DNA from: a virus
Lineage: Duplodnaviria; Heunggongvirae; Uroviricota; Caudoviricetes
Strand: one strand, 5' to 3'
IMG/VR virus record: IMGVR_UViG_2579778802_000015
DNA length: 48,953 bases
Shown here: positions 35,830-37,157 of the stretch, piece by piece
How positions within the stretch are numbered: the stretch's first letter is position 1
How the letters are laid out: the number at the start of each line of letters is the position of its first letter
The notes under the pieces: model-generated
What the model was told of the DNA's origin: nothing
Seen by the model: the letters and a program-made list of their open reading frames with translations, nothing else
The model's database searches: none
Position numbers and translations under genes: made by a program

Positions 35830-36918
35830 TTACCCCCTGAAACCCGGCGGAATTTCGGTGTCCGGTTCAGAAATGTGATTCACGCAACGCAGGCTGACTG
35901 CGCCAGCCTTCGGCAGCGACCACGGATTTTCGAAATTCCTGTTCGGGCCAAAAAACGTCGATGCCTGCTGAACAAATTCAGTTCCCGCTTTCCCGGTAGC
36001 CTCCAGGTATCTTGCGTAACGCCTCACGCCATCCAGCACGACATCCGGTGACACCCCTTCGCGTAATCTGGCCCTCCAGGCATTGAACGCGGATTTCTTC
36101 GGGTTTGACCCTGCCCGATGCGGATATTCACGCCAGACCCGTTCGAACACGTCAGGATAATCAACTCGTCCCGCAGACGGTCCCGGCATCGCCCGGGTTA
36201 ACCCAATCGGCTTCCCGCTCATCGCGGAATCGGCTTCAGGCTGCTGCGGTTGGCGTTGTTGCTCCGGTTCGACGATCAGCACCTGCTGCACACAACGCCC
36301 GGAATCTGCTTCCGGTGTCGTGCCAGCTGGTCCTGGACGTTCAGTCAGAACAGGACAAAAATCCCCCTGCGGGTCCGTGGCGGTTTTTTCGCCATGGACC
36401 AGAAGGGGTTTATCCCTTTCCTGTTCTTGTTCCTGTTCCTGTTCCTGTTCTTGGCTTGAAAGAGGCTCTGAAGGGGCTTCAATTTTCCGACATGATTCAC
36501 GTCTGACATCCAGGTGGAAATCATCCTTATATCTATCATAAAAGGATGATAAAAAAGGATTTTCCAGCAACACGGAATATTCATTTCTTACCCCAGCACA
36601 ACGGTTATCGCCAGGTTTCAGCGATTCACCAACCTGCCATGCTGCCATTTCATGCACCCATACAACCTCAGAATCATGGTCATAGCTGCAAAAACCAGCC
36701 TCGCAAGCCATTTGAAGCCCCTTAGAAGCCCCTTCAGGATCAAGTCCGGTTTCGTGAGCAATGTACAAAACAGGCAGGTAATAAAGGCCCAGCATATTGG
36801 AATGAGGCGAGGTCATCATATACAACGCCACTACCATACATTCCGGACCAGACTTCCTTAGTTTTCTCCCTGTTTCGCCTAACCAGAACTGAGGTGAAAT
36901 TGTTGCGTAATTACGCAT
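35830..36918 (-). CDS. Replication initiation / replisome organizer protein (O position)
   Basis: 362 aa; position of lambda O upstream of the helicase loader; central EQEQEQEQEQE linker encoded by (CTGTTC)n; conserved C-terminal domain. Confidence 0.7.
   Translation of the reverse strand: MRNYATISPQFWLGETGRKLRKSGPECMVVALYMMTSPHSNMLGLYYLPVLYIAHETGLDPEGASKGLQMACEAGFCSYDHDSEVVWVHEMAAWQVGESLKPGDNRCAGVRNEYSVLLENPFLSSFYDRYKDDFHLDVRRESCRKIEAPSEPLSSQEQEQEQEQEQERDKPLLVHGEKTATDPQGDFCPVLTERPGPAGTTPEADSGRCVQQVLIVEPEQQRQPQQPEADSAMSGKPIGLTRAMPGPSAGRVDYPDVFERVWREYPHRAGSNPKKSAFNAWRARLREGVSPDVVLDGVRRYARYLEATGKAGTEFVQQASTFFGPNRNFENPWSLPKAGAVSLRCVNHISEPDTEIPPGFRG
36418..36452. repeat. Hexanucleotide tandem repeat (CTGTTC-like, about 6 copies) inside the replication initiator gene
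   Basis: cctgttcttgttcctgttcctgttcctgttcttg read directly. Confidence 0.8.
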
Positions 36919-36938
36919 AGTCCCCTCGCATACAAGAT

Positions 36939-37157
36939 TTACTCCATACCGCAGACGGTCCCGGTATCTCCCGGGTTAACCCAATCGGCTTCAGGCTGCT
37001 GCGGTTGGTGTGACTGCACATTGGTGTGACTGCACATCTTCACAGACGGTCCCGGTATCTCCGGGTTAACCCAATCGGCTTCAGGCTGCTGCGGTTGGTG
37101 TTGTTGCTGGCGAAATTCTTCCAGATGTGGCAGAATTATTCCCGTGTATTGCTCCAT
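36939..37157 (-). CDS. Doubtful 72-aa ORF built from duplicated fragments of the replication gene
   Basis: Contains QPQQPEADWVNP twice; coincides with the about 55-bp direct repeats. Confidence 0.2.
   Translation of the reverse strand: MEQYTGIILPHLEEFRQQQHQPQQPEADWVNPEIPGPSVKMCSHTNVQSHQPQQPEADWVNPGDTGTVCGME
36946..37095. repeat. Two direct copies of an about 55-bp repeat, with a third diverged copy inside the replication gene at about 36171-36250
   Basis: ACGGTCCCGGTATCTCCCGGGTTAACCCAATCGGCTTCAGGCTGCTGCGGTTGGTG repeated. Confidence 0.8.

Follow-up and report, generated by a model that had tools for sequence, protein, structure and literature searches.

We analyzed the replication region of a tailed phage (Duplodnaviria; Heunggongvirae; Uroviricota; Caudoviricetes; IMG/VR virus record IMGVR_UViG_2579778802_000015), taking its whole 48,953-bp stretch of DNA as the window. 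A 55-bp element occurs twice there between cII and a 362-amino-acid replication initiator gene (positions 35830–36918, minus strand) and once more, diverged, inside that gene. A first-pass annotation had offered two readings of these repeats: iteron-like origin elements, or a recombination scar at a mosaic joint. Judging from sequence comparison, the 55-bp repeats are probably a lineage-specific duplication of a linker-coding segment, placed at the joint between a lambda-type cII-oop region and a non-lambda module of initiator and DnaC-type loader, and the origin elements would be two clusters of 11-bp repeats built on AAGGGGCTT within the initiator gene. These shorter repeats are likely the better iteron and origin candidate. 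On balance, we also slightly favor the view that the initiator represents an undescribed multi-phylum family without a Pfam model that carries its own origin, with two 11-bp-phased AAGGGGCTT clusters in its gene, one of them in the codons of the recognition helix that presumably reads it.

The 55-bp repeats at the mosaic joint

All three copies of the 55-bp element are present as first described. Upstream copy A (36949–37011) is a short form, and upstream copy B (37043–37108) has a right end that matches the in-gene copy C up to GTTGTTGCT and adjoins the oop promoter region. Copy C (36171–36263, minus strand) is a long form with 23 extra bp and encodes the linker QQRQPQQPEADSAMSGKPIGLTRAMPGPSAG immediately N-terminal of the C-terminal domain. 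Copies A and B share a 41-nt identical block (36971–37011 = 37061–37101) with a single 1-nt indel immediately before it. They are not strictly head-to-tail, since their period is 90–91 bp with a 31-bp spacer. The spacer takes in most of a perfect twofold 16-bp sub-repeat, TTGGTGTGACTGCACA (37005–37036), which begins at the very end of copy A and reaches four units in one E. coli variant (P0002). Copies C and A align over 44 nt with 2 mismatches, after which C carries its 23 extra bp, flanked by the 10-bp direct repeat AATCGGCTTC, and the match picks up again. The left flank is common to A and C and the right flank to B and C, which indicates that A and B arose by tandem duplication of a single ancestral upstream copy. 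Repeat matches of such length are far beyond chance in 49 kb. An assembly artifact was ruled out, as the repeat structure recurs in more than 100 independent assemblies.

The upstream copies lie at the point where homology to other phages changes. Homology to the cII-oop regions of lambda, P22-like and other lambdoid phages covers cII, the oop terminator and the extended −10, and fades at about 37107 (range of ends about 37107–37128). The homology between copies B and C stops at 37108, so the duplicated linker segment appears to be fused directly onto the end of the lambda-type module.

We then asked where the upstream copies occur. An IMG/VR scan with the initiator's N-domain returned 80 loci, 31 with 97–100% identity and 49 with 72–81% identity in other contexts. 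Upstream copies were found in all 31 of the former (one unit in 5 loci, two in 26) and in 0 of the 49 latter. An exact search of IMG/VR for the repeat core recovered this lineage only, a single E. coli/Shigella prophage lineage, and the copies were confined to one junction type. Copy number varied further among E. coli genomes, with one upstream unit in locus L007, three in L008 and three long-form units keeping the 23 bp in L010. All L010 units, upstream and in-gene alike, carry CATC where every copy in the window has CTTC, which points to gene conversion between copies. In E. coli SW071619 (L009:2400–2633), a crossover has fused the left part of C to the right part of an upstream copy; the N-domain is wholly deleted and a pseudogene is left. 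The duplicated linker supplies direct repeats flanking the N-domain cassette, so that deletion of the cassette is possible. Other initiator truncations, to 188–190 amino acids, were seen in L020 and L023, and together with the L009 pseudogene they suggest that resident prophages often carry a decayed replication gene.

Thus, near-identical copies adjoin the last base of the lambda/P22 oop homology at one junction, differ in number between genomes and have recombined with each other, which bears out the earlier suggestion of a recombination scar at a mosaic joint. The upstream copies would be neutral, recombinogenic DNA, dispensable for origin function, which would gain and lose units through unequal crossing-over or slippage and may be homogenized by gene conversion.

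Copy C belongs to a wider segment. It lies within 35830–36311, a stretch that shares about 82% identity with the 3′ portion of 'replisome organizer' genes of the Tritos/Rac type, whose N-domain is unrelated. As copy C falls in the segment common to these genes, it travels with the C-domain and not with the DNA-binding N-domain. Alignment of window 36171–36263 with Tritos (L003:2835–2945) revealed two compensating 1-nt indels that place about 17 linker codons in another frame (MSGKPIGLTRAMPGPS vs IQREADRVVPENTGQP), and a linker read in different frames suggests that the peptide is unconstrained there. PEAD-coding GAAGCCGAT units are repeated in such linkers, with 24-bp indels between units (L011).

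Candidate origin repeats within the initiator gene

Repeat-finding tools flagged GAAGCCCCTT within the initiator gene, in tandem at 36714–36734 and inverted at 36460–36482. Candidate iteron cluster 1 (36714–36736, minus strand; gene +183/+194) consists of two AAGGGGCTT units 11 bp apart in codons E62–L68. Candidate cluster 2 (36459–36481, plus strand; gene +438/+449) holds one exact AAGGGGCTT and one degenerate unit, is inverted relative to cluster 1, from which it lies about 255 bp away, and directly precedes a Glu-Gln (EQ) tract in the coding sense. The AAGGGGCTT 9-mer occurs three times in the window, always in the initiator gene, against an expectation of 0.41, and 0 of 100 shuffled sequences reached three. 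A confident structural model of the N-domain (predicted local distance difference test score, pLDDT, 88; predicted template-modeling score, pTM, 0.80) showed a winged helix, in which predicted helix 3 spans residues 61–73, so that cluster 1 falls within the codons of the predicted recognition helix.

Both clusters are found at matching positions in phages of Klebsiella, Escherichia (Fraca), Acinetobacter (42% GC) and Ralstonia (65% GC), despite differing C-domains. When one genome per species was scanned, 79 loci were recovered, from Gamma- and Betaproteobacteria, Acidobacteriota, Planctomycetota, Elusimicrobia and other groups. At least two units were present at each cluster in 63/73 loci from many phyla, cluster 2 contained 2–8 units, and the spacing between neighbors was exactly 11 bp in 148/170 cases. 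Flanking DNA was at chance level (0.24 motif matches per kb vs 0.21 expected). In distant subfamilies the two-cluster architecture was retained and the motif was altered at both clusters together, to GTTTCGAAAC/AAGGGTTTC in L169, to AAGGGTT(T) in L171–L174 and to GAAGGGGTCC in L165.

Three features place this constraint on the DNA and not on the protein. Third-base entropy was 0.31–0.50 bits at G63, A64, G67 and L68 of cluster 1, vs 1.3–1.9 bits at the remaining conserved four-fold-degenerate codons. The reading frame changes from one unit to the next. The orientation of cluster 2 also differs between loci (inverted in 47, direct in 6, mixed in 13), and the peptide changes with it (EAPSKPL vs EGASKGL). 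Changes in array size appear costly unless compensated: the near-identical prophage L041 (2920–2970) has gained one extra 11-bp unit at cluster 2, which frameshifts its initiator to 192 amino acids.

The 11-bp repeats thus combine co-occurrence with a DNA-binding domain, helical phasing and constraint at the DNA level, as expected of iterons. Between the clusters lies an AT-rich stretch with a 13-nt-arm hairpin (36520–36560), coinciding with a family-wide GC dip of 13 points at gene +361 to +390 (window 36529–36558). By analogy with lambda O, which binds ori-lambda inside gene O, the predicted winged-helix N-domain would bind the 11-bp units, and the origin would lie within about 36450–36750, with the clusters flanking the AT-rich stretch. 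The first-pass annotation had suggested, as one possibility, origin elements around the initiator gene; a location in the gene is probably right, with the 11-bp AAGGGGCTT repeats and not the 55-bp repeats as its elements.

Additional motif units were seen outside the two clusters in some relatives. Five Acinetobacter loci (L093, 1455–1498; L104; L107; L112; L115) have 2–4 extra units shortly before the start codon (−37 to −15), which may constitute an autoregulatory operator. In a Burkholderiales metagenome-assembled genome (MAG; L151:1–310), arrays of 5 and 4 units lie about 1.2–1.5 kb upstream of the gene and could mark either another origin-like site or another copy of the gene.

Alternative readings of the repeats

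We consider it quite unlikely that the initiator binds the 55-bp repeats, two upstream and one in the gene, as iterons or auxiliary origin elements in the manner of SPP1 oriL/oriR or plasmid iteron arrays. Such a role would fit near-identical repeats that adjoin an initiator gene, each with a perfect 10-bp palindrome, GGGTTAACCC, and a CCCGG-N6-CCGGG dyad, and that are kept in all isolated phages of this lineage. The first-pass annotation, however, had named absence from relatives with the same replication gene as grounds for dropping the idea, and the upstream copies are missing beside the 72–81% identical N-domains as well as from Fraca and Acinetobacter B1251, which are viable phages of the family. 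The core is confined to one lineage, copy number ranges from 1 to 3, and a 23-bp indel is tolerated. Copy C, in turn, is part of a linker/C-domain module found with a different N-domain. Iterons are short (about 11–22 bp) phased units near an AT-rich region, whereas these units measure about 60–85 bp without helical phasing, the third copy is 778 bp away, and the repeat region is 53–59% GC. The AATCGGCTT strings of the 55-bp repeats were tried as degenerate iterons and ruled out on their score against the position weight matrix of the family motif that travels with the N-domain: they reached 2.3–4.9 bits vs 16–20 bits for real units, on a matrix whose information content is inflated because its sites were chosen at ≤1 mismatch. 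A role in cis regulation is unlikely too. Under this reading, the upstream copies would act as an upstream element or factor site of the oop promoter, or as a translated leader coupling into the initiator gene through ORF72, the 72-amino-acid open reading frame that they create (36939–37157, minus strand). Copy B does reach roughly to the −35 of the oop promoter, and ORF72 and its frame variants all stop within about 20 nt of the initiator start codon or overlap it. Yet the repeats are missing from lambda, P22 and other phages that have this oop core, and copy number and frame vary freely. The leader RNA between cII and the initiator gene, both upstream copies included, gave no structure signal (fold z = −0.78), and the initiator gene has its own Shine-Dalgarno sequence, GAGGGG.

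That ORF72 is a genuine small protein gene, its internal repeats being coding sequence, seems very improbable. Several phage records list it as a hypothetical protein, and it constitutes PHROG 2751, but its relatives amount to only 10 small clusters among 5.8 billion proteins, all from E. coli, 42–102 amino acids long and differing in frame and C-terminus. It has no Pfam family, its sole NCBIfam match is sub-threshold (E = 0.057; 13.3 bits vs a cut-off of 45), and it was not called in L010. By its sequence relatives, ORF72 is an accidental frame and not a constrained gene. An upstream copy left over from another initiator gene was also considered and rejected, as no longer protein with an ORF72-like start was found among the 5.8 billion proteins.

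Several observations count against a neutral duplication paired with an origin in the 11-bp repeats. The two-copy allele is dominant among E. coli genomes, which could reflect selection rather than clonal spread, and a protein might recognize the palindrome and dyad of the 55-bp unit. Only one assembly shows the L009 deletion recombinant. No initiator gene starting MEQYTGIIL was found among the 5.8 billion proteins. As for the 11-bp repeats, the window itself holds only three good units and one degenerate unit, and the GC dip between the clusters may merely reflect codons rich in F, Y, K and D. We nonetheless regard duplication of the linker segment, with AAGGGGCTT clusters as the origin candidate, as the probable account.

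Linker, gene context and comparison with known systems

The EQ tract beside cluster 2 is encoded by a (GAACAG)n microsatellite (36418–36453, minus strand; Tandem Repeats Finder (TRF) period 6, 5.5 copies). It had been noted as (CTGTTC)n encoding an EQ linker, which holds, the coding strand being GAACAG and the peptide SQEQEQEQEQEQE. In five near-identical phages its length is offset by 0, −6 and −12 bp, and across IMG/VR loci it spans 3–7 units. A (E/D-Q)n tract of 3–9 units, written in mixed synonymous codons, is found at the same place in 51 relatives of diverse taxa, and confidence in the AlphaFold2 (AF2) model collapses from residue 147 (pLDDT below 50), predicting disorder. The tract is thus a conserved, length-tolerant interdomain linker of this initiator family. 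In the present lineage it is a nearly pure hexamer repeat, making it prone to slippage. Conservation of (GAACAG)n as DNA was rejected, as the mixed synonymous codons across taxa make conservation of the peptide the simpler explanation. CAG is enriched in the tract of low-GC hosts, and the tract may have a role at the DNA level. In three Legionellales MAGs (L154, L155, L158), (KE)n stands in place of (EQ)n at the same position, indicating that a charged repetitive peptide is kept and not a specific DNA hexamer. Just past the microsatellite in the coding sense lies the hairpin GAAGGGGTTTATCCCTTTC (36402–36420), which is terminator-like on the plus strand and has a weak motif match (8.2 bits).

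Genes on this stretch are ordered cI, cro, cII, ORF72, the 362-amino-acid gene, a DnaC/IstB-type ATPase and a DUF1627/YdaW-like gene, with all replication genes on the minus strand and directed away from the lambda-type immunity region. The cI gene (37908–38621, plus strand; 237 amino acids) is essentially that of lambda; cro occupies 37607–37807 and cII 37172–37468 (minus strand; PF05269, E = 3.8e-26). The oop-like antisense RNA (37144–37226, plus strand) was placed by alignment to lambda oop, which also gives its predicted 5′ end, and has an intrinsic terminator at 37196–37223. Window 37107–37228 is collinear with lambda 38721–38598 and also with a P22-like phage, and the RNA is antisense to the 3′ end of cII. 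Aligning the region to lambda and P22 revealed its promoter, with an extended −10, TGgCAGAAT (37128–37136); a strict sigma-70 scan of 36100–37500 found no promoter, and an Rfam scan of 35500–38000 (E ≤ 1) gave two chance-level matches, with no family reaching its threshold.

The initiator comprises the predicted winged-helix N-domain (residues 1–145), the low-complexity linker and the C-domain common to Tritos/Rac-type replisome organizer genes. Its partner is the DnaC/IstB-type helicase-loader ATPase (35083–35823, minus strand). The protein matches PHROG 1701 (phrog_1701) over residues 1–362 (E = 7.7e-153); this match is the sole basis for its initiator role, and the PHROG label 'DnaD-like helicase loader' is an annotation name. 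Pfam gave zero matches at E ≤ 0.01, so the protein is not of the Phage_rep_O family (PF04492), and across Pfam and NCBIfam only a sub-threshold 24-residue match to the DnaT C-terminus appeared, nothing usable. It did not match the replisome organizer N-terminal family (PF09681/TIGR01714), and a Tritos-type relative matched it only weakly (15.4 bits, cut-off 49.8). A sequence-profile search of the PDB found no chain. A preference for CGT at Arg2 (window 36915–36913) was seen in 53/67 relatives whatever their GC content (entropy 1.0 bit), which may reflect constraint on translation initiation.

The closest records to 35800–37250 are the Stx-type lambdoid phages PhiR5_2, Shigella phages 75/02 Stx and POCJ13, and phiSTEC1589-Stx1c (97.7–99% identity). 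Phages 75/02 Stx, POCJ13 and phiSTEC1589 share the replication module but have a different immunity region, which indicates that immunity and replication modules reassort around cII. Stx-converting E. coli and Shigella phages carry the module, as do E. coli O104:H4 prophages and prophages across Proteobacteria and beyond. Origins of O-type Stx phages have been the subject of published work (PMC7466680). Our full-text literature searches, whose coverage is incomplete, returned nothing relevant on iterons of non-O/P lambdoid modules, on POCJ13 or on the motif strings, and no description of this module or its initiator, for which Pfam and NCBIfam hold no family model.

If the initiator gene does carry its own origin, protein specificity and binding site would be physically one DNA. 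This would explain the near-invariance of the 9-mer from Proteus (35% GC) to Burkholderiales (68% GC) and the joint change of both clusters in distant subfamilies; it would also make the (EQ)n microsatellite part of a conserved origin cassette and the 55-bp copies bystanders. A candidate origin is thereby offered for a widespread non-O/P replication module, consisting of a winged-helix initiator with a DnaC-type or other loader. The candidate iteron pair overlapping recognition-helix codons would be useful for following, in nature, how a DNA-binding protein and its site co-evolve. The 55-bp repeats are themselves ordinary, but they show clearly how module exchange in lambdoid prophages of the Stx type creates unstable duplications, through which the replication gene can later be inactivated; this bears on prophage decay and on typing by repeat or microsatellite length.

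Among known systems, comparisons of HK97, HK022 and HK620 reportedly revealed exchange of modules at gene or domain boundaries, with mosaic joints and duplications in lambdoid phages. The joint described here resembles these in having a recombinogenic repeat exactly at the switch of module homology and restricted to one junction type. It differs in that the scar was copied from the linker of the downstream gene itself and has since been amplified in tandem. Like other coding microsatellites and acidic interdomain linkers, the EQ tract is built of 6-bp units, varies in length without loss of frame, lies between two folded domains and is predicted to be disordered; unlike them, it keeps its position across phyla, always after candidate iteron cluster 2.

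SPP1 G38P and other 'replisome organizer' initiators are said to have an origin in their own gene and a second copy elsewhere in the genome. The present initiator is alike in its predicted winged-helix N-domain, its candidate origin repeat in the initiator gene and a C-domain recruiting a helicase loader, but only the Tritos-type relatives that have its C-domain match PF09681 or TIGR01714, and weakly so. The likeness to lambda O and ori-lambda is one of organization. Both initiators have two domains, an N-terminal DNA-binding domain (predicted here) and a C-terminal domain that interacts with the loader, joined by a flexible linker, and both genes lie directly downstream of cII-oop and contain short phased repeats with an AT-rich stretch. 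The two proteins have no sequence relation, and the partner here is a DnaC/IstB-type ATPase and not P. The ori of lambda, annotated in NC_001416 as four 18-bp iterons and an AT-rich region inside gene O, has its four dyads in the linker, whereas the candidate origin here has 11-bp units in two separated clusters, one of them in codons of the DNA-binding domain. The 55-bp repeats have no counterpart in lambda.

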